64,000 nucleotides of DNA from a phage, in sequence record PZ000613.1; one strand, written 5' to 3'. Below, piece after piece: positions 6,369 through 30,629 of the stretch. The notes under the pieces are model-generated. The model made no database searches. It worked only from the letters and a program-made list of their open reading frames with translations, and had not been told where the DNA came from. The position numbers and the translations under genes are program-made. The first letter of the stretch is position 1. Every line of letters starts with the position of its first letter.

Positions 6369-7427
6369 TTACGCCGCCACCTTTCCCGCAGCAGTGAACA
6401 GAACGCCGGAAGCATACGGGTTGCGGTGACGCAGACCAACTTCCATTTCAATCATCCACTTCTCGTAAGAACCATCTTTCGCCAGTTCAGTACGTTTCGG
6501 AGCACGCAGAACCATCTGGGTCCAGTCAGCGCTACGGAAGAAGTAAACTGCATCGGTAGGCATCCAACGGTTAACGATGATTTTGTAGCTCTGGCCCAGC
6601 GGGTCAGTGATGCTGTTAACTTCGTAGATGAACTGCTTGGTGTTCTCAAAGATACGCTTACGTGAACCCTGAGTATTTTCTTGCAGACCAGCGAAGATCT
6701 TAGCATGAGCCGGGTTAATCATGATGATATCTGCTTCAGAACCAGCGGTATATAGTTGCAGAGTCATATCAAAGATATCAGCTTCGTCGAAACCAATGTT
6801 AGTGGTCGGGTTAGAAGCATTCTGTGCAACTTTAACAGTTACTGCACCAGTATCCGGGTCAGCAGGGCCATTTTTGGTCTTGTCAACAAAACCACCAGAC
6901 AGACCGCCGTGAGCACACAGGAACTGGAAAGCACCAGTCTTACGAGCTGCATGGGTGTCGTTCAGACCAACAACATCGGGATCAGTTGCAGAGTTAGTCA
7001 GGTACTGGTCAGCCAGAACGTCGGTACGAGCCTGACCGGACAGAAGGATCTTCTCGAGGTCACGCTTGATCTCTTTACCTTTCTTCTCCAGCTGATACAT
7101 CAGTTCACGACCACGACCATAGTTAGCGGTGGTGTTAGCAGTATCAGAAACACGAACAACCTTACGCAGAATCTGAGTAACGTTAGATTTGATAACAGTC
7201 GGTTTCATTTCGCCGTCTTCAGCACGAGAGCCTTCGACGTGTGCGTTATTAGCGTCAACGCTTGCCAATGCATCGGTCTGCCAGCTAAAGATAGTCTGGT
7301 TGATAGACTCTTTACCGGTCATAGATACGAACGGGGTATCCTGAGGGGACAGAACAGAAATCCAGTTAGCAAAAGAAAGTTTTTTACCATTCTGGTCATA
7401 CGATACAAATAAAGTTGGATTAGCCAT
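6369..7427 (-). CDS. major capsid protein (352 aa)
   Basis: Position between scaffold and Ig-like extension, size, strong RBS, followed by terminator; assignment by gene order and composition, not by a diagnostic motif. Confidence 0.6.
   Translation of the reverse strand: MANPTLFVSYDQNGKKLSFANWISVLSPQDTPFVSMTGKESINQTIFSWQTDALASVDANNAHVEGSRAEDGEMKPTVIKSNVTQILRKVVRVSDTANTTANYGRGRELMYQLEKKGKEIKRDLEKILLSGQARTDVLADQYLTNSATDPDVVGLNDTHAARKTGAFQFLCAHGGLSGGFVDKTKNGPADPDTGAVTVKVAQNASNPTTNIGFDEADIFDMTLQLYTAGSEADIIMINPAHAKIFAGLQENTQGSRKRIFENTKQFIYEVNSITDPLGQSYKIIVNRWMPTDAVYFFRSADWTQMVLRAPKRTELAKDGSYEKWMIEMEVGLRHRNPYASGVLFTAAGKVAA
6381..6387 (-). promoter_or_regulatory. -1 programmed ribosomal frameshift slippery heptamer G GGA AAG
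   Basis: Minus-strand GGGAAAG in X XXY YYZ register with the capsid frame, 4 codons before the capsid stop; the -1 frame continues without stop into the Ig-like ORF. Confidence 0.6.
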
Positions 7428-7467
7428 GTTATGTTAGCTCCTATACTATTAATAATTAATTTGTCGA

Positions 7468-8553
7468 TTAATCTACGAGGAATTTGAATGCGTCTTCGTG
7501 ACTAACGCGACCCTCTGCGAATGCCTTGGCAACCTTAGCGTTGTCGGGCTTATTGGAAGTACGAGACTTTGCAGCATCAGACTTCACAACCTTGCGTGGA
7601 GCACCGGGACGTTTAATCTTAGCCATCACCTGTTGCTTACCTTTATCAAATTGGTATGCTTTATGGAGAGCTAGGAAAATAGACGGACGGTTTTCCTTCA
7701 ATACTTCTTCTTCAGTAGCACCTAAGTCAATTGCGTATTGCATTAAGTTTTGATATAAGTTTTCATCCCAATTTGGAATCTCACGTTTCAGAATATTAAC
7801 ACATTCAATACTCTTGGCTTGGAAAGCTTCCTGCTCTTTAGCTGCTGCTTCCTGCTTAATACGGACCTGAGCCTGTTCAAGCTGTTGACGGCGAGCTGTG
7901 TACTTCTCTAAGAAACGTTTGTTTTCAACATATGCTTGAGGATCTTCTACTGCAAGCTTGTCCCAATCAAAACCGTTATAATCTTCAATTACTCGGTCTG
8001 CTTCTAAAGACGCTAGTTCTAATACATCCTTCAAACCTACTACACGTTCCTCAAATGCTTCCATATGACGCTGAAGAGTTGACTCTCGTTCTGTCATATC
8101 AGCACCAGTAAGATAGCCATTGGAGAGCTCTTCAATAGTCATCTCACGTCCATCAGGAAGGGTGATAACGGTTTCGTAGTCTACATCAAAGACTTCACCT
8201 TCACCGTCAGCAGAATCATCTTCATACCCTGCATCGCTTGAGTCTTCCTCTTCTACTTCAGTGTCTTCAGCACCTTCATCAGAGTCGTCCTCATCTTCTT
8301 CGACTTCGCCTTCCTCATCGTGATCTTCCCAACCATCTTCATCTTCGAACTTAAGCACATCGCTTTCACCGAGAAGGTCGGTATCAAAGTCGAAATCATC
8401 ACCGTCTTTTTCCGGGAACTCATCGTCAATGTCCACTTCTGGTTCTTGTTCAGATTCTAATCGACCGAGTTCTTCTTTGAAAGAACCTTTCAGGTCATCC
8501 AGTTGGAGGAAAGATTTAAAATCGTTCGGGTCAATATAATTATCTTGTGGCAT
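7468..8553 (-). CDS. scaffolding protein (361 aa)
   Basis: Highly acidic, Glu/Asp-rich with predicted coiled coil, located between portal and major capsid genes. Confidence 0.55.
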   Translation of the reverse strand: MPQDNYIDPNDFKSFLQLDDLKGSFKEELGRLESEQEPEVDIDDEFPEKDGDDFDFDTDLLGESDVLKFEDEDGWEDHDEEGEVEEDEDDSDEGAEDTEVEEEDSSDAGYEDDSADGEGEVFDVDYETVITLPDGREMTIEELSNGYLTGADMTERESTLQRHMEAFEERVVGLKDVLELASLEADRVIEDYNGFDWDKLAVEDPQAYVENKRFLEKYTARRQQLEQAQVRIKQEAAAKEQEAFQAKSIECVNILKREIPNWDENLYQNLMQYAIDLGATEEEVLKENRPSIFLALHKAYQFDKGKQQVMAKIKRPGAPRKVVKSDAAKSRTSNKPDNAKVAKAFAEGRVSHEDAFKFLVD

Positions 8554-8789
8554 TATGAAACATCTCCTGCACTATTGATAGCAGCTTTTATGACCTCTTT
8601 TAAGCTACCAACCATTTTATACTTTTGATAACAATCTTCGCGTTTCTTATTCTCATGAGGTTCTGTTTGAACTATCTCTGTCATGAGTCTTTCTTTCAAT
8701 GCCTCTAATGCTGCGTCAAGACTGCCGTTAAGGTTGAGAGCCGCCAAAGCGGCGGCGTGCTCTTTATTAAATTGATGTCTAATGTTCAT
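8553..8789 (-). CDS. hypothetical protein (78 aa)
   Basis: Small ORF between portal and scaffold genes, start overlaps the downstream gene (coupling). Confidence 0.35.
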   Translation of the reverse strand: MNIRHQFNKEHAAALAALNLNGSLDAALEALKERLMTEIVQTEPHENKKREDCYQKYKMVGSLKEVIKAAINSAGDVS

Positions 8790-8798
8790 TCGACGTCC

Positions 8799-11042
8799 TT
8801 AGTTTTTACTTCCAAGACGTTTGCCTGGAATCCGTGAATCTTTGAGAGAAGCTTGTTGCTCTTTCTTAGTTACATTAGCCTCTTTCTTTTGGAGTTCCAA
8901 AGTTTTATCCTGAACACGAGTTTGCTGAACAATCTTCTCTTGGTCTACTTGATGAGACATAACCATCTGCAATTCTTTCAGTACAGATTCATACTGACGG
9001 ACCTGCTGTTGCATAAGAGCTAACTTGTGCTTAGCTTGTTCCAGAGTAGCATTGTTATCTTCTTTACGGTTTTCCAGAGTCATTGCATCTGCTGCATTTT
9101 CTTGCTTGAACTGCAACTCTTCCTGACGCAGACTTAATTCATCCGCAGCTTTCTGCTGTTCGAATGTAGTACGTTCACGTTGGTCGAATGCATCAGCAAT
9201 CATCTTCTGAGAAGAAGCCTGTACGTTCTCAACCTGTGCTTTAGTCATCTCAAGCTGGAGGATTTCCATCGGAGACGGCTCAGGAGGCTGATACTGTTCC
9301 AGAGGCAGAAGGTATTTATGAGTATCTTTAATACCCATCAACTCAAAGATCTGTGCAGTCATGTAACGGTCTTGCTCCAAACCAAAGAGAGGTGCTAACT
9401 GTGCATCTGCTGCAATCAACTGTTTCAAGCTAATCAATTTCTGTGCACGTTCTGCTTTCTCATTAGGAGAGATAGCTACAACAACTTGAAGATTGTGGCG
9501 AGCTGGCAATTGTTTCGGATTTACCTGAATCATACCACGAGGGGTTTGTACCTCGATAGGAACTTCACCATTTTCTCTGATAAGATTGTAAATACCACGC
9601 ATCAATTCAACCATACCGTTGTGAGCAATGTTACGACATACCATACGGAGACGGTTCTGTGCAGCATTCATCATCAAGCCTACAGTTGCATAAGCGTTAT
9701 CATTCTTAAACACATCAGGGTTGATACCCATGCCAAGTTTAGTTACACCTGTACGAGTCTCTTTAAGCTCCTCAGACATACCTAGGAGGCCGTCAATACC
9801 TTGAGGTAGGTTATGGTATGGGAACAGGTCAATAGCATCCTGACGCTCCATTTCAACCACTCCACCGGGACGGTTATCAAGCAGAGAGCGACGATCGTAT
9901 GCACCAACAAGAGCTTTGTATCGACCATAGTTAGCATTGTTGACGTTATCAATATAACCACGAACTAACGCGGTACGTAAATCTTGAATATCTTTCGTAA
10001 TGTCATAGACGGATTGACCATAGAAGGAACCCGGAATTGGATACGGGCAGAAGGTTACAAACGGAATGTGAGTTACTTCTTCAGTGTGAAGGATATGCTC
10101 ACCAGCTTGAATAACCTGATAGAGTTTAGACTCTTTATTCTTATCTAGAACACCAGTACGAATGTAGTGCTCATAAACCCAAACCATAGAAGCAATGTCT
10201 TCGGTATCTGTACCAATATCAGCATCAATATCCTGACGCCAGTCAGTACGAGACCAAGCAACTGTAGATTGAGTAGTATCCATCGTGTCTGTCCAGTCGT
10301 TGAATGCTTCAATCTCGTCTTTAGGGAAGCCCATAGCAACCAGATCTTCTTTAGAACGACGTACACGATGACAGAAATATTGTGCATCTGCAAAAGAGGT
10401 AGCATGTTCATCAACAAAGATTTGCTCTGAAGGAACATATTCAACTTTCACACGTTTAACAGTTTGTTCATAAGTGACTTTAACATCCACTGTACCGTCT
10501 TCATTTTCTTCAGTGAAGATTTCCAGATTCTTGAGTCCACCAGCTTCTAATCCCTGAACATATGCAGCCAATGCTTCCGGTGGTACACCTTCAGCCTCTT
10601 CAGTTTGAGTAGAAGTTTGCTCATCCCAATAGTATTTGATAAAAGAGTTACGAGTAACCAGACATTCTTGTGCAGCAGAAGAGATAATATTGTATCCCGG
10701 ATTATCACGCAGAAGAATTTGGTTAACTAACTTAGTTGCTACATCAGCAGCATCAGAATCCTGTTGGTTGTCAGCTACGAAAGTAACTGCTTCATCACCA
10801 GAACAGAATACGTTAATAATATCTTGCAATGTACCGTTAACAGATTCCCAAACAGTACGATCTACCCAACTAGAGCTGCCAGCAGTTACTGGTGCAGGTA
10901 AGTTACCATAGAAATATTCCCAAGCTTCACGAGCATAGCCCTTAACAGCCATGTCCACGTATCCTTGAGCGTAATTAAAACGACGTTGAAGGTCAACACG
11001 TAACTCGTCCAACACCTCTTCACTATATTTTTGCTTAGCCAT
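8799..11042 (-). CDS. portal protein (747 aa)
   Basis: Large ORF immediately downstream of the large terminase and upstream of scaffold/capsid; size and order typical of portal. Confidence 0.6.
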   Translation of the reverse strand: MAKQKYSEEVLDELRVDLQRRFNYAQGYVDMAVKGYAREAWEYFYGNLPAPVTAGSSSWVDRTVWESVNGTLQDIINVFCSGDEAVTFVADNQQDSDAADVATKLVNQILLRDNPGYNIISSAAQECLVTRNSFIKYYWDEQTSTQTEEAEGVPPEALAAYVQGLEAGGLKNLEIFTEENEDGTVDVKVTYEQTVKRVKVEYVPSEQIFVDEHATSFADAQYFCHRVRRSKEDLVAMGFPKDEIEAFNDWTDTMDTTQSTVAWSRTDWRQDIDADIGTDTEDIASMVWVYEHYIRTGVLDKNKESKLYQVIQAGEHILHTEEVTHIPFVTFCPYPIPGSFYGQSVYDITKDIQDLRTALVRGYIDNVNNANYGRYKALVGAYDRRSLLDNRPGGVVEMERQDAIDLFPYHNLPQGIDGLLGMSEELKETRTGVTKLGMGINPDVFKNDNAYATVGLMMNAAQNRLRMVCRNIAHNGMVELMRGIYNLIRENGEVPIEVQTPRGMIQVNPKQLPARHNLQVVVAISPNEKAERAQKLISLKQLIAADAQLAPLFGLEQDRYMTAQIFELMGIKDTHKYLLPLEQYQPPEPSPMEILQLEMTKAQVENVQASSQKMIADAFDQRERTTFEQQKAADELSLRQEELQFKQENAADAMTLENRKEDNNATLEQAKHKLALMQQQVRQYESVLKELQMVMSHQVDQEKIVQQTRVQDKTLELQKKEANVTKKEQQASLKDSRIPGKRLGSKN

Positions 11043-20973: not shown

Positions 20974-21363
20974 ATGTTGACATTGACTATTTATTATGAG
21001 GCAGGGAATCAGCCAACCGCATGTAAGGCTTTAGTTGCGGATACCGTAATAAATAGAATGGCACAACGAAAACTGACCGCTGAACAGGTGATAAGACAAA
21101 AGAACCAGTTTGAGTGGATTCCGGTACTATTAAAACAGGAGAAACCTTATAAACGTTATGTAAAGCTGATTCGTGATAAAAATCCGATGACTGAGCAAGC
21201 CATTGGAGAAAGCGAGCGACTTGCTAAACGTGCCCTTAAGAAGAATTATGTTCCTCTGTATAGTGGGACTTACTTTCAGAGTAAGAGCGAAGGGGTGCCA
21301 AAATGGTATGCCAATCCTATGTATTGTGGTGATTTAGTGTTCGATAATAGCTCTAGGGAATAA
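20974..21363 (+). CDS. SleB-like cell-wall hydrolase (candidate endolysin or virion lysin)
   Basis: Motifs IYYEAGNQ ... VADTVINRMAQ ... QKNQFEW match the SleB/Hydrolase_2 signature; start codon uncertain (weak RBS at the ATG, AGGAGG further upstream). Confidence 0.5.
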   Translation: MLTLTIYYEAGNQPTACKALVADTVINRMAQRKLTAEQVIRQKNQFEWIPVLLKQEKPYKRYVKLIRDKNPMTEQAIGESERLAKRALKKNYVPLYSGTYFQSKSEGVPKWYANPMYCGDLVFDNSSRE

Positions 21364-21561
21364 TCACTAGTGCCAGATTTGACAAACTAAATTCCTTTAT
21401 AAACCAACCACTTAGTAAATTTATTGAAAAAGATGGTAGTATTCTGGGACTATGGGTAATGCTCTGTATATAGACCCTTTGAAAATTTCTTAGAAAATAA
21501 GTTTACTAAATATAACTTACTTAAATAATATTACTTTTAATCTCTGATAAAGGTGAATAAT

Positions 21562-21858
21562 ATGACTTTAGAAGTATATAAATTCCTTTTTGTAAGCTGT
21601 TTAACTATCAGCGTTATAGGGTTTATTGTTCTCAGAAACAAAGCAGCAAGCTGGGAGAGAATGTATAAATCTCTAGTCCGAGTGGATGAGATGTATAATG
21701 AGAAAGTTAAAGTAACACTCAACGATCTTATTATGCAAGTTGAAGACAGAAACAAACGTCTTCAGAACCTCAACCACGAGGTGTTACGCCTTGCTCGTGC
21801 TAATGAAGACTTGCGAGTGGCTATTGCTAAGCAGCAGGAGATTAACAGTGAAAGTTAA
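21562..21858 (+). CDS. membrane-anchored coiled-coil protein (99 aa)
   Basis: RBS AAAGGTGA; N-terminal transmembrane helix followed by charged helical region. Confidence 0.45.
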   Translation: MTLEVYKFLFVSCLTISVIGFIVLRNKAASWERMYKSLVRVDEMYNEKVKVTLNDLIMQVEDRNKRLQNLNHEVLRLARANEDLRVAIAKQQEINSES

Positions 21859-22084
21859 TATTAAATCCGATCGTACAATGCTTCGCTTAAACAACATGAA
21901 GCCGGGCGTTCTATTTGAGCGTAAAGATTCCCTTTACATTAGAACCGACACCCTGTACGCAGATAATTATGTCAACTGTGTTGATGTGGTAACTGGAAAG
22001 CTCATGCCTTTTAAACGGGATGAAGTCTGCCAAGTACGTAACGATCTCCACATAACCAACATAGAGGCTAAAGATGAAGATTGA
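21848..22084 (+). CDS. small paralog-family protein (GTG start, 78 aa)
   Basis: Shares the L-x-x-G-x-x-F ... V-x-L ... V-P-V pattern with eight other small ORFs in 22074-28669. Confidence 0.4.
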   Translation: MKVNIKSDRTMLRLNNMKPGVLFERKDSLYIRTDTLYADNYVNCVDVVTGKLMPFKRDEVCQVRNDLHITNIEAKDED

Positions 22085-22325
22085 TCTTGAGTTGAAGAGT
22101 CCGGAGCTAAAAGTGGGTGATTTGAAACTTGGAGATGTATTCCAAGTGAAGGCAACATGTATTGACCATTACATGATTGTTCAGCTATACACACCACATG
22201 TATCAGAGACTGATCTTCGGGATGGTTGTGTGGTTCTTAGTTTACGTACTAATCAAGTGATGAAGCTAGACCCAAACTTACCTGTTTCAGTTATCCATGA
22301 TGTAGTAATTACTAATCGGAAGTGA
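22074..22325 (+). CDS. small paralog-family protein (83 aa)
   Basis: Family pattern KVGDLKLGDVFQV ... VLSLRT ... LPVSVI. Confidence 0.5.
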   Translation: MKIDLELKSPELKVGDLKLGDVFQVKATCIDHYMIVQLYTPHVSETDLRDGCVVLSLRTNQVMKLDPNLPVSVIHDVVITNRK

Positions 22326-22633
22326 GTATGTCTGTTTCTTCTTTTGTAATATGCAAACCAACCGTAATAATTCGTGCTCAAATGAAACACTGTTCTGGTG
22401 TCACATATCTAGAGTTCGATCATAGTGATAGCCGATATAATCCCGGATTTACAGTGGCGATTAAATCTCCGTGGTTTAATATGACATTGTTGCCGGAAGA
22501 AGTAGAGTCAGCGTGTCGTGGCATCAAGACGGGGAGTTTGAGTCTTCTGTCCTCTAACTTAGGGGACGAGTTTATGCCTTTGATTCAGAAAGGTGTGGCT
22601 AACGTTCGTAAGATGAAGGAAGCGGTTAAGTAA
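22322..22633 (+). CDS. hypothetical protein (103 aa)
   Basis: ORF with ATGA-type overlap to the upstream gene. Confidence 0.45.
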   Translation: MSMSVSSFVICKPTVIIRAQMKHCSGVTYLEFDHSDSRYNPGFTVAIKSPWFNMTLLPEEVESACRGIKTGSLSLLSSNLGDEFMPLIQKGVANVRKMKEAVK

Positions 22634-23121
22634 CACCGACTTATAGCCCTTGTGTCTATCAGAGGGCTATGTGAGGGTGTTCCTCATTAACTTATTAATT
22701 CAGGCATATGCCACACCGCTAGGGAGAGCTTGCTCGAACATCCGGTGTTAGACTAAAACCTGTTAATTTTCGAAAGACTTTCTGATATGTAGGGGTACAT
22801 ATTGGTTTGGGATTCAGGAGACTTCCTAGGGGTAGGGAGTCTTCACCAGTTGGAATAAGAGATAGCTCTAGAACCTGAACTCTTAGGCAGAGAAGGTCGG
22901 CAATGAGTACGCGGTCAGGATTAGTCTACTGACTAGGGCTATCCCTTATATCAACTGGCAATAATGCCTCCACTAACAAAGAGAGATAGGTATGAAAGTA
23001 TCAACCAAACGTATGAACCGCCCTGAACGTATGGATGCAGTAGCTAACGGTGCTCTGAAACTGGAAGGCTTCTGGATTCATGCAATGTCAGCTGTTCGTA
23101 ACAAGCAAGGCAATTGGACCT

Positions 23122-23331
23122 ATGCCGGTTAAAACAGTTCATGTAATAGGTATGCGAGAAATCATTCGCATTGCCTTGATGGAACACACTGAACGTAACA
23201 TGCAACTAACTCAAATCTCTAAGTGTCTTAATTGCTCAAGAGATGTGGCTAAGGAGTTGATGTTCGCATTCCTGTATAATGCAGAAGACGGGACGCTACA
23301 GAATCATCTGATTCGTGGTGTGAGTCAATAA
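23122..23331 (+). CDS. hypothetical protein (69 aa; start uncertain)
   Basis: ORF ending just before a terminator; start chosen at the first ATG after the upstream small ORF. Confidence 0.35.
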   Translation: MPVKTVHVIGMREIIRIALMEHTERNMQLTQISKCLNCSRDVAKELMFAFLYNAEDGTLQNHLIRGVSQ

Positions 23332-23336
23332 AGAGA

Positions 23337-23366
23337 GGCTGCCTTCGGGCGGCCTTTGTTGTTTTA
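23337..23366 (+). terminator. rho-independent terminator
   Basis: AGGCTGCC-TTCG-GGCGGCCT hairpin followed by TTGTTGTTTT. Confidence 0.55.
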
Positions 23367-23409
23367 ACTAAGGGACAACTCTTACTTAAACTAACAAGAG
23401 GAAGCTAAA

Positions 23410-23586
23410 ATGTCTAAGCAAACAATCAAACATACGCAAGCTGGTTACTCTTATGTCAACTCTCCTTGCTGTGGTGCTCGTGTTAATCTGGTTAAGGAAG
23501 AGGTTCGTATCGTTCAGCGTGGAGCTACTGTTGTTCGTTCATGCTGTGTCTGTGGTAATGATATTTTCATTAAAGGTAAAGTATGA
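23410..23586 (+). CDS. small Cys-rich zinc-ribbon-like protein (58 aa)
   Basis: RBS GAGGAAG; paired Cys clusters (CCGARV ... CCVCGND); stop overlaps the next start. Confidence 0.4.
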   Translation: MSKQTIKHTQAGYSYVNSPCCGARVNLVKEEVRIVQRGATVVRSCCVCGNDIFIKGKV

Positions 23587-23810
23587 ATATTGTTTTAGAT
23601 TCAACTAAACCAAATCAAAAGACTTTCCGAGATTTGAGTGTGGGTTCTGTTTTCTCACTTGATGATTGCCCTTGTGATAGAAAGAAATTCTACATGAAGA
23701 TTGGGGGAGGTTTTTCTGTAAATCTATCACACCCTGCTCATAAACTCTCATTCGCTGGTCAAGTACCAGTTACAGAATATAAAGCAACTCTTAAGTTAGA
23801 GGAAATGTAA
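23583..23810 (+). CDS. small paralog-family protein (75 aa)
   Basis: Family pattern FRDLSVGSVFSL ... VPVTEY. Confidence 0.5.
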   Translation: MNIVLDSTKPNQKTFRDLSVGSVFSLDDCPCDRKKFYMKIGGGFSVNLSHPAHKLSFAGQVPVTEYKATLKLEEM

Positions 23811-24061
23811 TGAAAAACTTCCAAGCTGCACCAATAACTAAAGTGATTGAAGTTGACGGTGTAATGATGACTGTTCCTCTGAACACTCGTTACATTGCAA
23901 TTGACAAGATGGGTTATGTATGGGCTTGGAAGATTAAGCCTAGCTATAACGCATTATTTGATGAGTTTGTTTGTACTGGTACGTACAGTCCTACATTCTT
24001 AGGTTTGTTTGGAGAGTTTGACGGTCAGTATAAAATCATCACTCTCCCTGCTTGTGCTTGA
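23810..24061 (+). CDS. hypothetical protein (83 aa)
   Basis: ORF with overlapping stop/start to the upstream gene. Confidence 0.45.
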   Translation: MKNFQAAPITKVIEVDGVMMTVPLNTRYIAIDKMGYVWAWKIKPSYNALFDEFVCTGTYSPTFLGLFGEFDGQYKIITLPACA

Positions 24062-24068
24062 GGTTAAT

Positions 24069-24245
24069 GTGAGAGTAAAGCAAATCCATAAAGACTACTG
24101 GAGAGTCGCTGATAGTGAAAACCAAAGGCTTGCAGGAATCTCTCTTATAGGTCAATGGTTTGTTGTAACTTCTGCCGCAGGTCAGTATGTTGGACGGTTT
24201 CGTTCCCTAAATGAAGCTATATCCTTTTCTATCAAAGGTTCTTGA
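24069..24245 (+). CDS. hypothetical protein (GTG start, 58 aa)
   Basis: ORF in operon context; start uncertain. Confidence 0.3.
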   Translation: MRVKQIHKDYWRVADSENQRLAGISLIGQWFVVTSAAGQYVGRFRSLNEAISFSIKGS

Positions 24246-24246
24246 T

Positions 24247-24411
24247 ATGATCAAGTGGTTTAAACGTTTCTTCCATCTCCATGATTGGGAGACAATAAAA
24301 GAAATTCGTTTACACATATACAATGAGATCGGTCAAATAGAAGACACAGGTACTCGTTATATACTTCGATGTAAAACATGTGGTCATATCACCAAGCGAG
24401 ATATGATCTAA
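24247..24411 (+). CDS. small zinc-finger-like protein (54 aa)
   Basis: CKTCGH motif; starts 1 nt after the upstream stop. Confidence 0.35.
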   Translation: MIKWFKRFFHLHDWETIKEIRLHIYNEIGQIEDTGTRYILRCKTCGHITKRDMI

Positions 24412-24419
24412 ATAATTCT

Positions 24420-24495
24420 GCGCTCTTAGCTCAATGGATAGAGCAGTAGCCTTCTAAGCTATTGGTTACAGGTTCGAGTCCTGTAGGGCGCACCA
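24420..24495 (+). tRNA. tRNA-Arg (anticodon UCU), CCA encoded
   Basis: Cloverleaf read by eye: acceptor GCGCTCT/AGGGCGC, D-arm GCTC-AATGGAT-AGAGC, anticodon stem GTAGC/GCTAT with loop CTTCTAA (UCU), T-arm ACAGG-TTCGAGT-CCTGT, discriminator A plus CCA. Confidence 0.85.
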
Positions 24496-24635
24496 CATTT
24501 AGGGCTAGTATGGGTGCGGCACCAGAGTTAGTGTATCCCTGTTGAGGCAAGTGCTTTTATAACAGTGGGAATTACTTTCTTAGTGAGCTTCTGGTTCGAT
24601 TCCAGATAGTCCACCAAATCAAATAGGAGGTAGTT

Positions 24636-24917
24636 ATGAGTTGGGGTGGTGTAATATCCTTAATCTGTATCTTCCTTGTCTGCATAGCCCTTACAGGCTG
24701 CGTACAGAGCCGTCCTGATGGATGGTGTGCAGTAGCAGTGGAAGGTATTTGTGTTTCTCGCTGGCACCAAGGCGAGAAGGTTCCTTCTGGTGAAATTGAT
24801 ATGCGTTACAGTGGTATCTCATGTCTTAACGGTGCAGCAGTAGATGAGGAGACTAAAACCTTATCCAATGCTCAATGGTGTGGCGGTTCTGTAACAACAA
24901 CCGGTAAGGAGTGGTAA
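24636..24917 (+). CDS. lipoprotein (93 aa)
   Basis: Strong RBS AGGAGG; signal peptide ending in lipobox LTGC; several further Cys residues. Confidence 0.55.
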   Translation: MSWGGVISLICIFLVCIALTGCVQSRPDGWCAVAVEGICVSRWHQGEKVPSGEIDMRYSGISCLNGAAVDEETKTLSNAQWCGGSVTTTGKEW

Positions 24918-24918
24918 T

Positions 24919-25167
24919 ATGACAGCTCATTATTGGAATACAAAGAAGCTTCTTGAAGAGATGGCTGGAGGTAGTAGGGTACAGTTAATCTCTATGCTTC
25001 GAATGGATGCTCGCTCCTTACGCTTCCAAGTAAAGATTGGTAACTTCAGTGACGGCCTTTATTACACGCTGAAGGAAAGGATTAAGAAGACTCACTTCAT
25101 CATGTACGGAATCAAACCGAGAACGTACGTTAACTACATGTATTGGAATACATGCTACGATAATTGA
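24919..25167 (+). CDS. hypothetical protein (82 aa)
   Basis: ORF starting 1 nt after the upstream stop. Confidence 0.4.
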   Translation: MTAHYWNTKKLLEEMAGGSRVQLISMLRMDARSLRFQVKIGNFSDGLYYTLKERIKKTHFIMYGIKPRTYVNYMYWNTCYDN

Positions 25168-25174
25168 GGTTATT

Positions 25175-25396
25175 ATGAAACTAGACTCTAAGCAGTCACT
25201 TAAAACCGTTGAGCTGTCCACTCTGCCAAACGGAAGTATTTTTGGTCATGATAAACACTTCTGGATTAAAACAGACATCATAAACGATGGATATATCACC
25301 TGTGTCAATCTTTGGAACGGCTCAGTGGATGGCTATCGCCCTAGCGCAAAGGTGGTGCCTCAGCCTGATGCAAAGGCTACAGGTTTGGTTTACTAA
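25175..25396 (+). CDS. small paralog-family protein (73 aa)
   Basis: Family pattern TVELSTLPNGSIF ... ITCVNLWNGSVDG. Confidence 0.5.
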   Translation: MKLDSKQSLKTVELSTLPNGSIFGHDKHFWIKTDIINDGYITCVNLWNGSVDGYRPSAKVVPQPDAKATGLVY

Positions 25397-25698
25397 GGAG
25401 TTCAGTATAAATGAAACTCAAACGAATGCTTTTTCGAAATGGAATGTACACTCTCCGAGAATCCCCTAAAGGGGACACTACAAAGTGGAGTGTAGGGGAT
25501 TGGATTTCATTCATAGATGAGAAGGGCAGCTGGATTCTCGAGTAACAGGAGCCTGTATGAGTTGTTTTGGTGGCGGTGAAGTGGATGACGATGATGATAT
25601 GGAATCTAACGGTACATGTCCTGATTGTGGATGTGAGACGTGGGATGGCGTGTCAGTGTATCCTGCCTGTAGTTACTCACCAGTGATCTGTAAAACAT

Positions 25699-25956
25699 GT
25701 GGAGATCAACCTTGTGACCAGTCTTGTTAGTGTGTTAATAGCCTATTTAATAGGGTCAGTAGTATCAGGTGTTCTAATTAAGATCATAGATGTTAAAGGT
25801 AATCAGTGTTTCAGAGGTTGGGATGGTGAACCAGATCTCGGAAAGATAGCAGCTATGGTTTTCTTATGGCCTATTATTGCTGTACTGTTTATAGCACTTG
25901 TAGCATGGGCTGCCCTTTGGGATTTCATCCTTCCTAACAAAAAGTATGAGGACTAA
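25699..25956 (+). CDS. small membrane protein (start uncertain)
   Basis: Two predicted transmembrane helices; shares an LWPI motif with the 26099 ORF. Confidence 0.35.
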   Translation: MEINLVTSLVSVLIAYLIGSVVSGVLIKIIDVKGNQCFRGWDGEPDLGKIAAMVFLWPIIAVLFIALVAWAALWDFILPNKKYED

Positions 25957-26098
25957 TGACTGAAGAATTTTTAAAGTGGTTTGGTGATACCTTCAAAGAG
26001 TATCTATTCTCTCCAGAAGACTTTGAAGAACTGAAAACCTACACTTGGTTGGCTTGGAGAGATAGCCGACGAAAGTTGAACAAGTAAGAGACGATTAA

Positions 26099-26356
26099 AT
26101 GGGTTTACTTGATATTTTTATCTCAGTTTACTTTATTGGAGTATTCCTTTCTGTTTTAGTGCTGAAACTACTATACAAGAAAGGTCTACTAAAAGGGGTC
26201 ATTACAACAGGGTCTACCAGCTCTGAACCTGATGAGATGATGGTTGTGATCTTAATTGTGTTATGGCCCATCTCAATACTGGCAGGAGTCTGTTATCCGA
26301 TAGGTTGGCTTCTGTCTAAAGCATATGATGCAGTTATACGTTTTATATTTAAGTAA
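26099..26356 (+). CDS. small membrane protein (85 aa)
   Basis: Two hydrophobic helices (ISVYFIGVFLSVLVL, VVILIVLWPISILAGV). Confidence 0.45.
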   Translation: MGLLDIFISVYFIGVFLSVLVLKLLYKKGLLKGVITTGSTSSEPDEMMVVILIVLWPISILAGVCYPIGWLLSKAYDAVIRFIFK

Positions 26357-26596
26357 TATCGTGAAGGATTCTTACGAGAGTCCTTTGAGATAGGACTTCA
26401 GATCTCCTATCAAACTAACATTCATGTAACTAGCCCATAAGGGCGTTACCCTTTAATAACCCAGCCCACTAAGGGGGCGGGAGTTTAGTGCTGGATTGGC
26501 TTTACGCTTATTCCTACAAAGGCAACCGATTGTTAGATCTTACATGCAATATTAACTAATAGGGTAAGGGAGGATTCGTCCCCTCCCCCTATTTTA

Positions 26597-26625
26597 TTGA
26601 ATCTTTATCTAAGCAAGTCTTATAT
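26597..26625 (+). promoter_or_regulatory. candidate sigma70-type promoter TTGAAT-17-TTATAT
   Basis: Follows a GGGAGG...CCTCCC hairpin; about 20 nt upstream of the RBS of the 26647 gene. Confidence 0.35.
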
Positions 26626-26646
26626 AAATGTTTAATTGGAGGATGT

Positions 26647-26958
26647 ATGAAAGCACGAAGAACTATATGGACTCCTATGCAGATTGAAAACCTTCGGAGA
26701 CTAATCAAAGAGTACTCGGTTCAAGAAGTTGCTCAGATTATGAATGTAACGGAGAATGCTGTTAACACAGCTTGCACTAAATTCGGAATATCAAGAGCTT
26801 CAATCCGAGTTAAATGGTCTGAAGAAGAAGACCAGTTCCTTATCCGTAATGCTGGGTTCATGTCTATTCAGAGAATGGCTGACATGCTCGGTAGAAGTTA
26901 TGCTGCTGTACAGAACAGGGCATGTATGCACCTTAACATTAGCCTCAAACTTAAATAG
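26647..26958 (+). CDS. putative DNA-binding regulator with two helix-turn-helix-like repeats (103 aa)
   Basis: RBS GGAGGA; internally repeated segment (VQEVAQIMNVTENAVNTAC / IQRMADMLGRSYAAVQNRAC). Confidence 0.45.
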   Translation: MKARRTIWTPMQIENLRRLIKEYSVQEVAQIMNVTENAVNTACTKFGISRASIRVKWSEEEDQFLIRNAGFMSIQRMADMLGRSYAAVQNRACMHLNISLKLK

Positions 26959-26966
26959 GAATCGAT

Positions 26967-27221
26967 ATGAAAGTTAACGAGTTGAACAAAACCATCAAGA
27001 CTGTGAAACTCCACACTCTAAAGAATGGTGACACATTCCGTAAAGAGGAGAACGGCCCAATCCACATGGTGTGTACTGCGTCGTCTACCAATTGGGTGGA
27101 AGTTGCACGAGATCGAATTGTGTGCGTAAGACTGGAAGATGGCAGTCTGAGTGGTCCGGTTGACGGCATCTCTGTCATACCGGTCAAAGTTGAAGCTAAC
27201 GTTATTAAGGGTTCTAAATGA
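26967..27221 (+). CDS. small paralog-family protein (84 aa)
   Basis: Family pattern TVKLHTLKNGDTF ... VRLEDGSL ... VIPV. Confidence 0.55.
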   Translation: MKVNELNKTIKTVKLHTLKNGDTFRKEENGPIHMVCTASSTNWVEVARDRIVCVRLEDGSLSGPVDGISVIPVKVEANVIKGSK

Positions 27222-27457
27222 AGATTACAAAGAGAGTGGATCGTGTCCCACTTGAGTCCTTAGAAAACGGGGCCGTGTTTAAGCATCCAGACAGTGACAC
27301 ACTCTATGTTAAAGGTTTTGTTCACGGCACACCTAATGTGTCCGTAAATAATGGACGTACTCTATCTCTTCGTCTACATGACGGGCTTGTAACAGCACCT
27401 GATTCTACGTGCCAAGTTATCCCTGTGTCAGCTGAACTTTTAGTGAGTGATTGCTAA
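27218..27457 (+). CDS. small paralog-family protein (79 aa)
   Basis: Family pattern RVPLESLENGAVF ... LRLHDGL ... VIPV. Confidence 0.55.
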   Translation: MKITKRVDRVPLESLENGAVFKHPDSDTLYVKGFVHGTPNVSVNNGRTLSLRLHDGLVTAPDSTCQVIPVSAELLVSDC

Positions 27458-27702
27458 TGAAAATCATCCCAAAGAAAAAGGATAATACGGTTCGATTGGA
27501 AACAATCATTCCCGGAAACCCTTTCGTGGTTCAGAACGGAAGTGCTTCTCCTCAGTATTATATGAGGGTTGAAAATGCTTCTGGTAATATCCGTATAGCT
27601 AGTGGTTGGATTCCTGTAGTGAATCTATTCACAGGTGTGCTGTGTGTTAAAGGTGCTGACGAACAGGTTGAAATGATTCGTATGTCAGTTGTTCAGGAGT
27701 AA
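27451..27702 (+). CDS. small paralog-family protein (83 aa)
   Basis: Family pattern TVRLETIIPGNPF ... IPVVNLFTGVL. Confidence 0.5.
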   Translation: MLMKIIPKKKDNTVRLETIIPGNPFVVQNGSASPQYYMRVENASGNIRIASGWIPVVNLFTGVLCVKGADEQVEMIRMSVVQE

Positions 27703-27704
27703 TC

Positions 27705-27965
27705 ATGAGCACTATTCATATTAAAGTTAAGAGCAAAGAGGAAACAGTCCTCCGTGTTAAAGATCTAAATATGTCAGATGTGTTCACTCTCCAAGAGTGC
27801 CATCTTCAAAAGACTTACATGCTGACAGCCAAGAGTAGGGGCAGTCAACCTGCTGGAGCTGTTAACCTAGGCACTGGAGAACTACGTGTCATCTCTGGTG
27901 ATATGGTTGTTGGTGAGAAGTTTAGTAAAGCTGAAATTATCTTAACTCCACAGGAAAACAAATGA
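27705..27965 (+). CDS. small paralog-family protein (86 aa)
   Basis: Family pattern VLRVKDLNMSDVF ... VNLGTGEL. Confidence 0.5.
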   Translation: MSTIHIKVKSKEETVLRVKDLNMSDVFTLQECHLQKTYMLTAKSRGSQPAGAVNLGTGELRVISGDMVVGEKFSKAEIILTPQENK

Positions 27966-28184
27966 GACGTAAAGCATATTCTTATGACGATATGATTAAC
28001 CAGAAAGGTTTTGGTCAACGACAGCCTGATGGTTCAATTATCTGGTTTGTAAACGGACAGAAAAAGGTAACTAAATAAGCCCTCTTCTCTCCTCCTTTTA
28101 GTACTATGACGCCTCTTTTTAGACGGCCCAATTTGCGTAGGGAATTCCCTCTACGCAGCCATGACTTTTTAAGGAATTTCCCCT

Positions 28185-28418
28185 ATGTCTAAAGTAAGCG
28201 CAATCGATGCAATCCGTCAACCGTTCCAGTTCCAATCCAAATCAACCCAAACCTTCAGTGAACCTAAGCAAATTCGCTTGGGCGGCACGGAGAAAACTGT
28301 GTTCGATCTGGCTAAAAACAAGAGCGTTACCGTAGTTGATGGTGGCACTCTGGTTAACGTTTCCCATCGCATCCGCACTGGCAAAACTGCCAAAGATCGT
28401 GCTAAGAAAGGTCTGTAA
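28185..28418 (+). CDS. hypothetical protein (77 aa)
   Basis: ORF preceded by the conserved 19-nt intergenic motif and a hairpin. Confidence 0.45.
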   Translation: MSKVSAIDAIRQPFQFQSKSTQTFSEPKQIRLGGTEKTVFDLAKNKSVTVVDGGTLVNVSHRIRTGKTAKDRAKKGL

Positions 28419-28669
28419 TGCAAATTTCCAATAAAACACCTCCTGAGCCTACTGTTCAAGTAAAAGATATGACACCGGGAGATGTGTTTCGTTCGGTTGA
28501 ATATCCGGGGGAATTCTTTATCCGAATCCCTTCTGCCTCTGTTGATGGTGTCACTAAGCCGGTAACAGCAGTTCAGTTGAGCACAGGTCATCTCTTCCGT
28601 TTAGAGCTTGACATGGCAGCTATTCCTGTTCCGACAGCAATCCTCCGCTTCGACGGAGACACAGAGTAA
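28418..28669 (+). CDS. small paralog-family protein (83 aa)
   Basis: Family pattern TVQVKDMTPGDVF ... VQLSTGHLF ... IPV. Confidence 0.55.
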   Translation: MQISNKTPPEPTVQVKDMTPGDVFRSVEYPGEFFIRIPSASVDGVTKPVTAVQLSTGHLFRLELDMAAIPVPTAILRFDGDTE

Positions 28670-29058
28670 CATCTATAGCCCTCGTAAGTATCAGAGGGCT
28701 ATGTGAGCTATTCTGGCTCAACTAACCTAATCTTAATATATTTCCCGTATGGGGCCGATGCTAGGGCGAGGAGTGTTCCTCAAACATCCGTCGGATAGAT
28801 ATTTTAAGAGCAGGTTATCCACAGATATTGGGTAATATCTTTTTTTGGATTTAAAGCTTGGCTCTTTTCGGAGAGTCCTTTTTTAAATTCAACGAGAGGA
28901 AATATGTCTAAATTAGATTTAAAACTGCTAGCAGCAGCGGTAGTGATTTGTGCACTAGCACTGGTAACGCAGAGAACATCTGGATTTATTCAGTGTTTCT
29001 TTTCTGGGCAATCCACTTATCAGTGGGTTATTGACGAGTGTAAACAACAGGAGTAAGT

Positions 29059-29421
29059 ATGAATACACGTCCCATCAAGGGCAACGTTAATATTGAAACT
29101 CTGAACAAGGTTGCATCAAACCTCGGTGGTATGTCCAACGAAGAACTTGAGCAAGAACTTGCTTGGATTGCAAATGGTATCACAATTGCTAAAGGTAAGA
29201 TGGCTCGTGAGCAAAGTAATATGAAAGCTCACAAGTATATCATCCGTCGTGCAAACATGTTACCGGATCGGGTTGTACATCTTGCCCGTAAGAACTACGA
29301 AAGTGCTAAAGAAGCCCTGCTTGAAGCAGAGTTTCAGAAGCATCAATTTATGAACAACTATCGAAACTTCCGAGATATTCTTTATATCCGTAAATCGATT
29401 GAGTTGATTAAAAACCAATAG
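29059..29421 (+). CDS. hypothetical protein (120 aa)
   Basis: ORF with RBS AGGAG. Confidence 0.45.
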   Translation: MNTRPIKGNVNIETLNKVASNLGGMSNEELEQELAWIANGITIAKGKMAREQSNMKAHKYIIRRANMLPDRVVHLARKNYESAKEALLEAEFQKHQFMNNYRNFRDILYIRKSIELIKNQ

Positions 29422-29432
29422 AGGTTGGTATA

Positions 29433-30629
29433 ATGTTTCCAGTAACATTAGAAGATACTGAAGGTAATGTTTTAACGGTCAACCCCCCTTGTTATGGGTT
29501 CCTTCAACTTCGAAACTATAATGGCGGCGTTGATGAAAATGATGACGAAGATGATGACTACTTCGACCCTAACATGTATGAGGCAACTCATGGATGGAAT
29601 ATGCACGTTCGAGTGTGGCATGAAGAAGCTAACGTTCGTAGTGCTGATGGGGAAGAGTTCCTGTTAAGCCGAGAGATGGATATGTGTAAAATCAAACATA
29701 TCTGGAACTCCGGAACTCACATGAAGATGTTAGGTTTTAGACGTTGGAGTGATGAAAAACCTGTATCCGCAGCTTTAGGTTGGGGTGCAATCGATCATGA
29801 AGGCGAGCTTAAAAATAACATCGAACGTTGGAACGACAAAAACCCTGAACACCGAACCACACCTCGTGCTGTACTGGAAGCTATGGAAGCATTTGTGGAC
29901 AAAGATCGTCCCTCCTGTTTACGCTGGCACGATAAAGGTTTTATGGGGGTAGCAACTGAGAACATCCCTGCTGATCGTTGTCTGTTCTATTTGATGTTAG
30001 ACCGAACCTTCTATTGTGAAGATGAAGAAAGTCAAGTTGAAACCTTCCTCCATAAATGGTTGGTTGAAGGCTGGACAATCCTTCAGGCTTATGTTTACTC
30101 ACGAATGGTTAGCACTTACACTAACCTCTTGGGTGAAACGAAAGCAACTCTGGTTGGTAATGATTGGGATGCTTGTATCTTCCCAGCGTCGCTATTTACA
30201 GTTGGTATGGCTGATAAATACGCTGAAGCATTTCAAGTGCCTTGGCGTCAACAGTCATACAGAGATGGATGCGGTCACTTCCGTGATGAAGACTTTAAGT
30301 GGATCCATTATGAGAATGATGAAACAGCAGAATTACGAGTTAACAACTCAATGTTCTTGCCAGTGATGCACCCCGATCTAGTAAAAGATGGTTCAGAGAT
30401 ACTTAAAGGTGATAATCTTTTGGTTAACTTTACCCGTCGCGTGTCTAAAAATGAGAGAACAGCTAACAAGCTAATCTACGGTATTCGTGCCGAGGCTAAA
30501 GACCTGTTCAACATCTACAACATCATTCAGCGATTTAGTAGTGGAACTCTGGACCAAAGTTCGGAGTATTCAGTGATTCCATCCTCTGAGTGGGATGGTA
30601 TTATGAGCGGATTATTTTTAGGAAAATAA
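29433..30629 (+). CDS. hypothetical protein, first gene of the amidoligase cassette (398 aa)
   Basis: ORF with RBS GAGG; tightly spaced with the downstream cassette genes; no motif recognised. Confidence 0.5.
   Translation: MFPVTLEDTEGNVLTVNPPCYGFLQLRNYNGGVDENDDEDDDYFDPNMYEATHGWNMHVRVWHEEANVRSADGEEFLLSREMDMCKIKHIWNSGTHMKMLGFRRWSDEKPVSAALGWGAIDHEGELKNNIERWNDKNPEHRTTPRAVLEAMEAFVDKDRPSCLRWHDKGFMGVATENIPADRCLFYLMLDRTFYCEDEESQVETFLHKWLVEGWTILQAYVYSRMVSTYTNLLGETKATLVGNDWDACIFPASLFTVGMADKYAEAFQVPWRQQSYRDGCGHFRDEDFKWIHYENDETAELRVNNSMFLPVMHPDLVKDGSEILKGDNLLVNFTRRVSKNERTANKLIYGIRAEAKDLFNIYNIIQRFSSGTLDQSSEYSVIPSSEWDGIMSGLFLGK

Follow-up and report, generated by a model that had tools for sequence, protein, structure and literature searches.

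Why does a coliphage carry two diverged copies of the same untranslated element, each directly behind a stop codon of its early genes, and what could they do? The question is raised by a stretch of phage DNA of 64,000 nucleotides (nt; sequence record PZ000613.1), hereafter called the window, in which an original prediction had noted a perfect hairpin shared by two intergenic spacers. The best matches of window positions 21000-30000 among 143 phage records (megablast) are members of Kuravirus, the phiEco32 group, with 92-95% identity, and the window belongs to a phiEco32-like coliphage of this group. We conclude that the two copies are paralogues of one conserved, strand-specific five-helix RNA domain, and we tentatively propose that the second copy is part of a regulatory RNA directed at the host genes nrdDG.

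A conserved RNA domain present in two copies

The hairpin pair had been placed correctly. ATAGCCCT-N12-AGGGCTAT, followed by GTGAG, is found at 22643-22675 and 28675-28707, and these remain the only matches in the window even if 3 mismatches are allowed (0 in 100 shuffles). Instead of a single hairpin with accompanying blocks, however, the element is a domain of about 110-125 nt which extends downstream and forms five helices, designated H1 to H5 (copy 1, 22640-22753; copy 2, 28672-28800). Both copies start 6-10 nt after a stop codon. H1 (8-10 bp) has an invariant base, UAUAGCC/GGCUAU, a covarying top, and a loop which either comprises 12 nt or reads UUCG, CUCC or UCCCGA. One base after H1 follows H2 (5-6 bp), then an AU-rich linker, and then H3, consisting of 3 bp and a tetraloop. 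H4 (6-7 bp) encloses a symmetric 7x7 internal loop, 5'-CUAGGGN / 5'-NAACAUC, which is invariant except for one covarying non-Watson-Crick pair, and H5, with 3-5 bp and a loop that is hypervariable, forms the apical hairpin. The hairpin H1, stressed in the original prediction, is the least specific part of the element, as its apical half and loop vary freely. The most informative and invariant part is the internal loop of H4/H5, formerly seen only as a “AACATCCG block”; the pattern GCTAGGG-N-AACATCCG has exactly two occurrences in the window. Another block believed to be shared, GTGTTCCTCA, is not homologous between the copies, being part of H2 in copy 1 (22677-22686) and of H5 in copy 2 (28772-28781), and its recurrence is a coincidence.

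A covariance model was built from 20 sequences of the copy 2 lineage only (Kuravirus, Suseptimavirus and four 7-11-like phages), with copy 1 left out. Using this model with filters off, copy 2 scored 143 bits and copy 1 59.7 bits (E ~2e-12). The third-best match in the window reached at most 16.2 bits and, consequently, just two copies are significant. The pairing is maintained in homologues of related phages: standard pairs occupy 98.4% of the pair cells in 35 distinct sequences, compared to 34-49% when the partners are slid by 1-3 columns. Two-sided (compensatory) changes were detected at 12 of the 29 pairs; most of them separate a few clades, so that the independent events are few. The covariation score is 0.378 versus 0.143 ± 0.009 in shuffles. 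For the copy 2 lineage by itself, 99.1% of the cells are paired and 8 pairs have two-sided changes. All cells of the 9 aligned H1 pairs (100%) are paired, and H2, H3, H4 and H5 use three or four pair types each. Even the non-Watson-Crick pair closing H5 covaries (A/G in 21, C/A in 11, A/A in 3 and C/G in 0 sequences), the C/A state being found in copy 2 of Kuravirus, copy 1 of Suseptimavirus, and phage 7-11.

Further, G.U pairs are frequent, e.g., U.G at one H4 pair in 20 of the 35 sequences, and the loops include UUCG, GAAA and UACG. Since G.U pairs would be C.A mismatches on the opposite strand, these pairs, together with the loops named, identify the folded molecule as RNA of the + strand, i.e., in the sense of the early genes. 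The element shows the general property of a structured RNA, namely strand-specific pairs kept by compensatory changes, and its existence, extent, structure and strand are directly established. Covariation, strand-specific G.U pairs and RNA-type tetraloops strongly support the conserved structured RNA element that had been suspected.

Searches for a known family gave no match to the element. Rfam 15, applied to the whole window at the gathering threshold, reported a tRNA-Arg as the sole match, and with E values up to 10 nothing relevant was found in either spacer, where sub-threshold chance matches reached 13-16 bits. Resemblances noticed by eye to the 11-nt tetraloop receptor (CCUAA/UAUGG), the sarcin-ricin loop, the kink-turn, the RfaH ops element and boxA were dropped as coincidental or inconsistent across lineages. 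The RNA family is new in the sense that it is absent from Rfam and that no description of this phage element was found in the literature searched; its general kind is familiar.

Anatomy of the two copies

In copy 1, all parts of which are on the + strand, H1 occupies 22643-22670 (ATAGCCCT/AGGGCTAT, loop of 12 nt) and begins 10 nt behind the TAA stop codon (22631-22633). H2 (22672-22686, TGAGG-GTGTT-CCTCA) covaries with GAGC/GCTC and GAGT/ACTC of the copy 2 lineages. H3 (22703-22712) reads GGC-ATAT-GCC, with the pair types GC:19/CG:16 and CG:24/GC:11, and H4/H5 (22713-22748) combines the stem ACACCG/CGGTGT, the loop CTAGGGA/GAACATC and the apical hairpin GAG-CTTG-CTC. The tail (22749-22844) contains the invariant single-stranded TAGACTAAAACCTG (in RNA, UAGACUAAAACCUG) and two hairpins with GGGG loops, P6 (22783-22804) and P7 (22817-22844, without a U-tract), both of which covary across Kuravirus and Suseptimavirus. 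No terminator was found in the spacer of copy 1, where the P6/P7 region continues without one. The 8-mer AGGGCTAT of the H1 3' arm recurs at the end of this spacer (22935-22942) in a small hairpin, AGGG-CTAT-CCCT, and could pair alternatively with the H1 5' arm, although its recurrence is probably due to chance.

In copy 2, likewise on the + strand, H1 (28675-28702, ATAGCCCTC/GAGGGCTAT) begins 6 nt after the TAA stop at 28667-28669 and is followed by H2 (28704-28720, TGAGCT-ATTCT-GGCTCA). H3 (28744-28753) reads CCC-GTAT-GGG, and H4/H5 (28755-28794) has the stem CCGATG/CGTCGG, the loop CTAGGGC/AAACATC and the hairpin GAGGA-GTGT-TCCTC. The linker between H2 and H3 (28723-28743, TAACCT..TCTTAATATATTT) resembles the sense sequence of the nrdD leader and forms the 5' strand of an additional helix, P_LR, in which, according to RNAalifold, UAACCU..UCUUAAUAUAUUU pairs with AGAUAUUUUAAGA..AGGUUA behind H4 (28797-28817). 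P_LR has about 18 bp in Kuravirus, shows some covariation between Kuravirus and the Salmonella phages (RNAalifold), and makes a three-way junction with H3 and H4/H5. The fold of the single copy 2 sequence agrees with P_LR and is more stable than shuffles (z = -3.99). For copy 1, P_LR was dropped, as it is neither predicted nor conserved. The tail of copy 2 (28799-28832) is antisense to the nrdD leader; its 5' part contributes the 3' strand of P_LR, and it includes a 9-mer corresponding to a DnaA box (28815-28823). Behind it lie P6 (28823-28846, AGATATT-GGGT-AATATCT, then a run of 7 T), which is weak and not present in phage 7-11, and an intrinsic terminator (28860-28884; 7-bp stem, UUCG loop, T6) that ends 20 nt before the start codon at 28904. 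This terminator is conserved with covariation, has UUCG, GAAA or UUGCGAU as loops, and is annotated as a terminator in phages 7-11 and SU7. It is the real intrinsic terminator, found in copy 2 only and about 160 nt downstream of H1. H1 itself, as the original prediction rightly stated, has no U-tract and is not a canonical intrinsic terminator: GTGAG and H2 follow it, and it is absent from the list of the terminator scan.

This arrangement could suggest a riboswitch-like attenuator, in which the three-way junction of P_LR, H3 and H4/H5 would be an aptamer sensing a ligand or a protein and controlling the terminator downstream. A junction with an invariant internal loop is indeed present, directly followed by a conserved terminator and the next gene, and the stability of the copy 2 fold is marked. 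Nevertheless, we consider an attenuator extremely improbable, as a conserved alternative pairing for antitermination is missing, copy 1 has the same core without P_LR and terminator, Rfam contains no relative, and the gene after copy 2 differs by lineage (gp90 in Kuravirus, endolysin in 7-11).

Occurrence of the domain among phages

The domain was searched for by BLAST and pattern scans in phage records, IMG/VR, metagenomes and one genome per bacterial species. Among these collections, it was found in three groups only, i.e., Kuravirus, Suseptimavirus, and Moazamivirus-like Salmonella phages. Kuravirus and Suseptimavirus have two copies in each genome. Phage EcoN5 has three copies through segmental duplication; the duplicated block comprises gp93-gp91, copy 2 and gp90-gp89 (7027-8230 and 8545-9748 of the extracted EcoN5 sequence). 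Phages 7-11, SE131, SeKF_80 and pSal-SNUABM-01 have one copy, which is orthologous to copy 2, and no second copy was found in the early and middle half of the 7-11 genome. At the orthologous place of Salmonella phage PKM.Hi.22.6, only an H1-like hairpin and ACUAACCU are found, and 7-11 has an additional H1-like hairpin standing alone. Based on such solitary hairpins in relatives, H1 is a separable module, H3-H5 being the part that defines the family. A loose pattern scan of viral contigs returned 120 loci, nearly all of them due to chance, with only the NJ01 genome being real; tighter patterns in the viral, metagenome and genome collections gave only few chance matches in unrelated contigs beyond the three groups.

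Phage 7-11 has, in addition, a stretch of 712 nt in which no gene is annotated (record positions 82133-82845), just downstream of gp135, the homologue of phiEco32 gp112. Its neighbor gp136 is annotated as “anti-termination protein Q-like.” The covariance model R1 has no match in this stretch.

Complementarity of the copy 2 tail to the host nrdD leader

Positions 28672-28890 were compared with 5426 complete Escherichia coli genomes, and a match was obtained at one place in each of 5326 of them (50 bits, 36/42 identities). For a single E. coli genome, we estimate E ~1e-6 by scaling the reported value of 5e-3. The treC-nrdD spacer holds the match, which lies 14-55 nt before the start codon of nrdD, this gene being on the opposite strand. 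Consequently, RNA of the phage early strand is complementary to positions -12 to -47, approximately, of the nrdD leader, a relationship which is directly established. The complementary block in the copy 2 tail covers about 33 nt (28799-28832), and the predicted pairing consists of 6 bp, a U.U, 15 bp, a G.U, 8 bp, a one-base bulge and AUAU, ending beside the GGAG Shine-Dalgarno sequence. Using RNAduplex, an energy of -49.5 kcal/mol was calculated for the Kuravirus tail on the E. coli leader (shuffles -14.3 ± 3.1), -35.3 kcal/mol for the 7-11 tail on the Salmonella leader (shuffles -15.6 ± 3.6), and -30.4 kcal/mol for the pSal tail on the Salmonella leader (shuffles -17.6 ± 3.8, lowest -30.8). 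Between Kuravirus and the 7-11-like phages, GGTTATCCACA (AGGTTATCCACA; core AGGUUAUCCACA) is the only invariant island of a tail that has otherwise diverged, and the Salmonella nrdD leader, located through the NrdD homologue, retains the target core CUGUGGAUAACCUGUUCUU / CUGUGGAUAACCUGUUCUUACAAAUAUGGAG. The controls, i.e., the spacer of copy 1 and about 1 kb of other early spacers, were without a comparable match in E. coli. Copy 2 thus shows extended target complementarity near a ribosome-binding site beyond chance, as expected of a small RNA (sRNA), with a unique place in the host and negative controls. The earlier suggestion that the element is an sRNA has, therefore, gained support for copy 2 from the antisense match and the downstream terminator.

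We tentatively favor the explanation that copy 2 is an operon-embedded structured regulatory RNA acting on nrdDG. In this model, H1 and H2 directly behind the stop codon would provide stable 3'-proximal hairpins for the upstream cistron, and H3 together with H4/H5 and the invariant 7x7 loop would fold into a domain that recognizes a conserved partner, either protein or RNA, or serves it as a scaffold. The domain would head a non-coding segment whose 3' tail is the effector. The antisense tail of copy 2, followed by the intrinsic terminator, would pair with the nrdD leader immediately upstream of the Shine-Dalgarno sequence, and copy 2 would act as a regulatory RNA of the 3' untranslated region (3'UTR) type on the expression of nrdDG, i.e., of the anaerobic ribonucleotide reductase. 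The RNA would be processed or accumulate and would pair with the leader in vivo, and nrdD expression may shift in either direction. With its end 2-5 nt away from the Shine-Dalgarno sequence, the duplex could prevent initiation or induce cleavage by RNase III. Alternatively, pairing with the phage RNA could free the ribosome-binding site if a certain leader fold holds: in the minimum-energy fold of the E. coli leader, UGUUCU inside the target pairs with GGAGCG, but this fold is weak (z = -0.8), and folding of the E. coli and Salmonella leaders gave no clear structure (z = -0.8 and +0.6). The early and middle half of 7-11 has no annotated ribonucleotide reductase; the phage would then depend on host enzymes.

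Several observations weigh against a role in nrdDG regulation. Copy 1 has the domain and no detectable host match; nrdD, therefore, does not explain the function of the domain itself. PKM.Hi.22.6 is without H3-H5 and without the antisense block, and in pSal-SNUABM-01 the complementarity is down to about 11 contiguous bp, with a duplex energy inside the range of the shuffles. No clean host-specific co-variation between phage tail and host leader was found, and cross-host energies are similar (RNAduplex): the Kuravirus tail gains only about 4.5 kcal/mol on the E. coli compared to the Salmonella leader, from six E. coli-specific pairs, and the Salmonella phage tails gain nothing on the Salmonella leader. 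The antisense block is partly sequestered by P_LR within the phage RNA, and pairing with the linker could by itself explain the conservation of AGGUUA. The similarity to nrdD could also be what is left of host DNA once captured by the phage. A location of the target within the nrdD mRNA would follow from our reading of the -10 element and the NrdR boxes, given that a perfect TATAAT is located about 150 nt upstream of the nrdD ATG in E. coli, just downstream of the NrdR and FNR boxes described earlier (PMC2892513). Finally, no Kuravirus transcriptome or RNA end-mapping was found in the literature.

The DnaA box in the tail offers a different explanation, namely a site acting at the DNA level, where host DnaA, and possibly other proteins, would bind to a box that the nrdD leader shares together with its flanks. 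This site could form a roadblock or have a regulatory role ahead of the terminator, or it could belong to a replication origin. TTATCCACA (28815-28823) is the only perfect DnaA box of the window, is invariant in all copy 2 lineages, and has two counterparts in the host nrdD leader. One perfect 9-mer per 64 kb is, however, close to chance, as are 23 sites with one mismatch versus 18.4 expected; neither a cluster of boxes nor the architecture of an unwinding element is present. The E. coli identity extends over 36/42 positions, well beyond a 9-bp site, the rest of the element is clearly a strand-specific RNA, and copy 1 is without a box. We regard a DnaA site as very unlikely.

The nrdD leader itself has further features. 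If TATAAT is the -10 element, the leaders are about 150 nt long (1188-1335 in E. coli and 1320-1465 in Salmonella, extracted sequences). In both species, they contain two DnaA-box-like repeats, TGTGGATAA, both of which read TGTGGATAACCTG in Salmonella. A stretch near the 5' end of the leader is complementary to the Shine-Dalgarno region and changes in step with it (GCUCC/GGAGC in E. coli, CACUC/GAGUG in Salmonella), which hints at a leader-based translational control of nrdD. No report of RNA-level control of nrdD was found in the literature.

Genomic context within the early operon

Both copies are located inside the early gene cluster, all genes of which are on the + strand. In phage SU10, the early genes (coding sequences 120 to 69) have three sigma-70 promoters at the start of the cluster, which ends without a terminator (PMC4281155), and in Salmonella phage 7-11 validated promoters were found only at the far right end of the genome (PMC8948821). 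The early operon of about 25 kb is driven by the host sigma-70 RNA polymerase, and both copies are transcribed within a long polycistronic RNA. As originally stated, both copies follow a stop codon; a region of 350-390 nt without an open reading frame (ORF) was confirmed for copy 1 (358 nt, 22634-22991) but not for copy 2, where it measures 234 nt (28670-28903). Neither spacer contains an ORF of at least 34 amino acids, and homologues differ by 1-nt indels, hence protein coding was rejected. The promoter scan found no sigma-70 promoter on the + strand of either spacer, and the gp36 promoter motif TAATGTATA is not present in either of them. The small basic gp112 gene lies directly 3' of copy 1, and copy 2 marks the border at which tiny ORFs are succeeded by large genes for metabolism and replication. 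Which genes precede the two copies varies among phages, yet the conserved block always opens at “(A)AG TAA/TGA C” (window 22631-22642 and 28664-28674). Accordingly, the stop codon belongs to the element, and the 5' edge of the element has the appearance of a recombination junction at which early genes are shuffled.

Each element lies untranslated between genes of one long operon (for SU10, see PMC4281155), with a stop codon right in front of it, a position that would also suit cis-acting cassettes for processing or stability of the polycistronic early mRNA, like the RNase III sites between T7 genes, with the nrdD similarity being a relic. RNase E in the AU-rich linker, or RNase III in the H4-loop-H5 stack or P_LR, are possible agents of the cut, after which H1 and H2 would protect the new 3' end, and H3-H5 the new 5' end. 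The hairpins are very stable with UUCG-type loops, an AU-rich linker separates them, and the geometry is compatible with RNase III: H4 (6-7 bp), the 7x7 loop and H5 (3-5 bp) together stack about 18 positions and thereby come close in size to a substrate of this enzyme, and P_LR has about 18 bp in Kuravirus. Moreover, H1-like hairpins stand alone in relatives, and in 7-11 a processed or stalled 5' end is tied to a hairpin elsewhere in the genome (PMC8948821). On the other hand, a simple nuclease barrier needs no internal loop whose 14 nt are invariant and whose non-canonical pair covaries isosterically, as maintained in two phage families, and P_LR is not found in copy 1. The match to nrdD is far beyond chance, and a relic would not remain invariant while its flanks diverge. 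Hence, we judge such cassettes possible but doubtful.

Three conserved intrinsic terminators were detected within the early unit by the terminator scan, at 23334, 26568 and 28860, all of which lie inside what the literature treats as one early transcription unit. The first (23334-23365) is a strong terminator-like hairpin of 10 bp with a UUCG loop and a U-rich tail, located after the second gene 3' of copy 1; the annotation of phage WFI101126 lists it as a terminator. With early promoters reported only at the start of the cluster (SU10, PMC4281155; 7-11, PMC8948821) and no room for a promoter before the gene at 28904, the element could be a cis-acting antitermination signal, enabling the host polymerase to read through early terminators either as RNA alone, like HK022 put, or together with a small phage protein, like lambda nut. 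It precedes terminators that have to be passed during transcription of the unit, and the sole terminator annotated in the 50-kb half of 7-11 with early and middle genes directly follows it. The presence of two diverged copies, whose stems covary and whose unpaired bases are invariant, recalls putL/putR, and copy 2 sits where the tiny ORFs end and the large genes of metabolism and replication begin. The gp112 gene just downstream of copy 1 resembles the arrangement of lambda, in which the N gene follows nutL. However, gp112 as an N-like partner was rejected, since its co-occurrence with the element merely mirrors phylogeny, and the variable apical loops make a loop recognition of the boxB type unlikely. 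There is no sequence or model similarity to known antiterminator RNAs and no conserved alternative pairing with a terminator (the candidate AAGAGC/GCUCUU has only 4-6 bp and is unconserved), and nothing links the RNA mechanistically to a terminator. The single copy of 7-11 is situated about 18 kb from the promoters, and the terminators may simply leak. Antitermination, therefore, appears quite unlikely.

Two other regions of the early cluster deserve mention. A third long spacer (26356-26647) has a separate conserved structured region: a hairpin with a UACG loop right after the stop codon and a second hairpin are followed by the motif CAAACUAAC (compare CAACUAACC of copy 2), a CCC-AUAA-GGG hairpin, further helices with some covariation, the intrinsic terminator at 26568-26597, and then a promoter-like TTGAAT-N18-TATATA. 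The covariance model R1 scores 13.8 bits on this spacer and 18.5 bits on that of PKM.Hi.22.6. At 24496-24636, about 140 additional bases follow the tRNA-Arg, where phiEco32 and WFI101126 have only about 20 nt. They end in a tRNA-like T-arm and acceptor end (CTGGTTCGATTCCAG ATAGTCCACCA), with a possible 5' acceptor strand, GGGCTAG, at the start. Neither ARAGORN nor Rfam called a tRNA here, the sole match being weak, partial and of the transfer-messenger RNA type (11.5 bits).

Significance and comparison with known systems

To our knowledge, regulatory RNAs have hardly been mapped in virulent phages, and the phage sRNAs described to date are mostly those of prophages. The domain adds a well-supported new structured RNA family for two phage groups that are now in therapy collections, and its invariant internal loop implies a specific partner. 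It also leads to a concrete hypothesis, which would tie a phage early transcript to anaerobic ribonucleotide reduction of the host and, thus, to the supply of deoxynucleoside triphosphates (dNTPs) under gut-like anaerobic conditions, and to a possible account of how a single sigma-70 unit of about 25 kb is punctuated where small host-takeover genes give way to large genes of metabolism and replication. In its widest form, virulent phiEco32-like and 7-11-like phages would use the H3-H5 scaffold, with a loop binding a host factor, to present a long antisense sequence to the nrdDG leader and to reprogram anaerobic dNTP synthesis in a gut host; copy 1 would be the same scaffold with a different target, in a modular system of a scaffold plus exchangeable antisense tails. 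This wider picture is speculative and, taken as a whole, unlikely. If the antisense link fails, an ordinary, well-defined new intercistronic RNA motif remains.

The closest parallels for copy 2 are the enterobacterial sRNAs derived from 3'UTRs or embedded in operons (CpxQ, SroC, RaiZ) and the prophage sRNAs DicF and svsR. Like copy 2, they share the intrinsic terminator of the mRNA and have a conserved complement to a target leader by the ribosome-binding site, with a structured body upstream. Unlike CpxQ and its kind, copy 2 is found in a virulent phage within an early operon of about 25 kb, its complementarity of about 33 nt is far longer than typical seeds, its pairing region is partly pre-paired in cis, and its terminator must be read through for the downstream genes.

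The early RNase III sites of T7 (R0.3-R1.3) are, similar to the element, repeated homologous hairpins with irregular internal loops between early cistrons transcribed by the host polymerase, and they leave a 3' hairpin on the upstream message. In contrast to these sites, the element is a multi-helix domain with five helices, and a three-way junction in copy 2, occurs in two copies only, and would be cleaved only hypothetically. HK022 putL/putR and lambda nutL/nutR likewise consist of two diverged copies in early transcripts upstream of intrinsic terminators; as in the element, their stems covary, their unpaired bases are invariant, and both would be cis-acting RNAs. The element differs from them in that both copies lie in one operon far from the promoter, sequence and model similarity is missing, the apical loops are variable, and antitermination is hypothetical. 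Finally, H1 is capped by C(UUCG)G in many variants of copy 2 and is located between genes, as are the intercistronic CUUCGG hairpins of the T4 type (Tuerk et al., 1988, discussed in PMC8948821). Unlike those hairpins, H1 has the invariant base UAUAGCC/GGCUAU and is coupled to four further helices.

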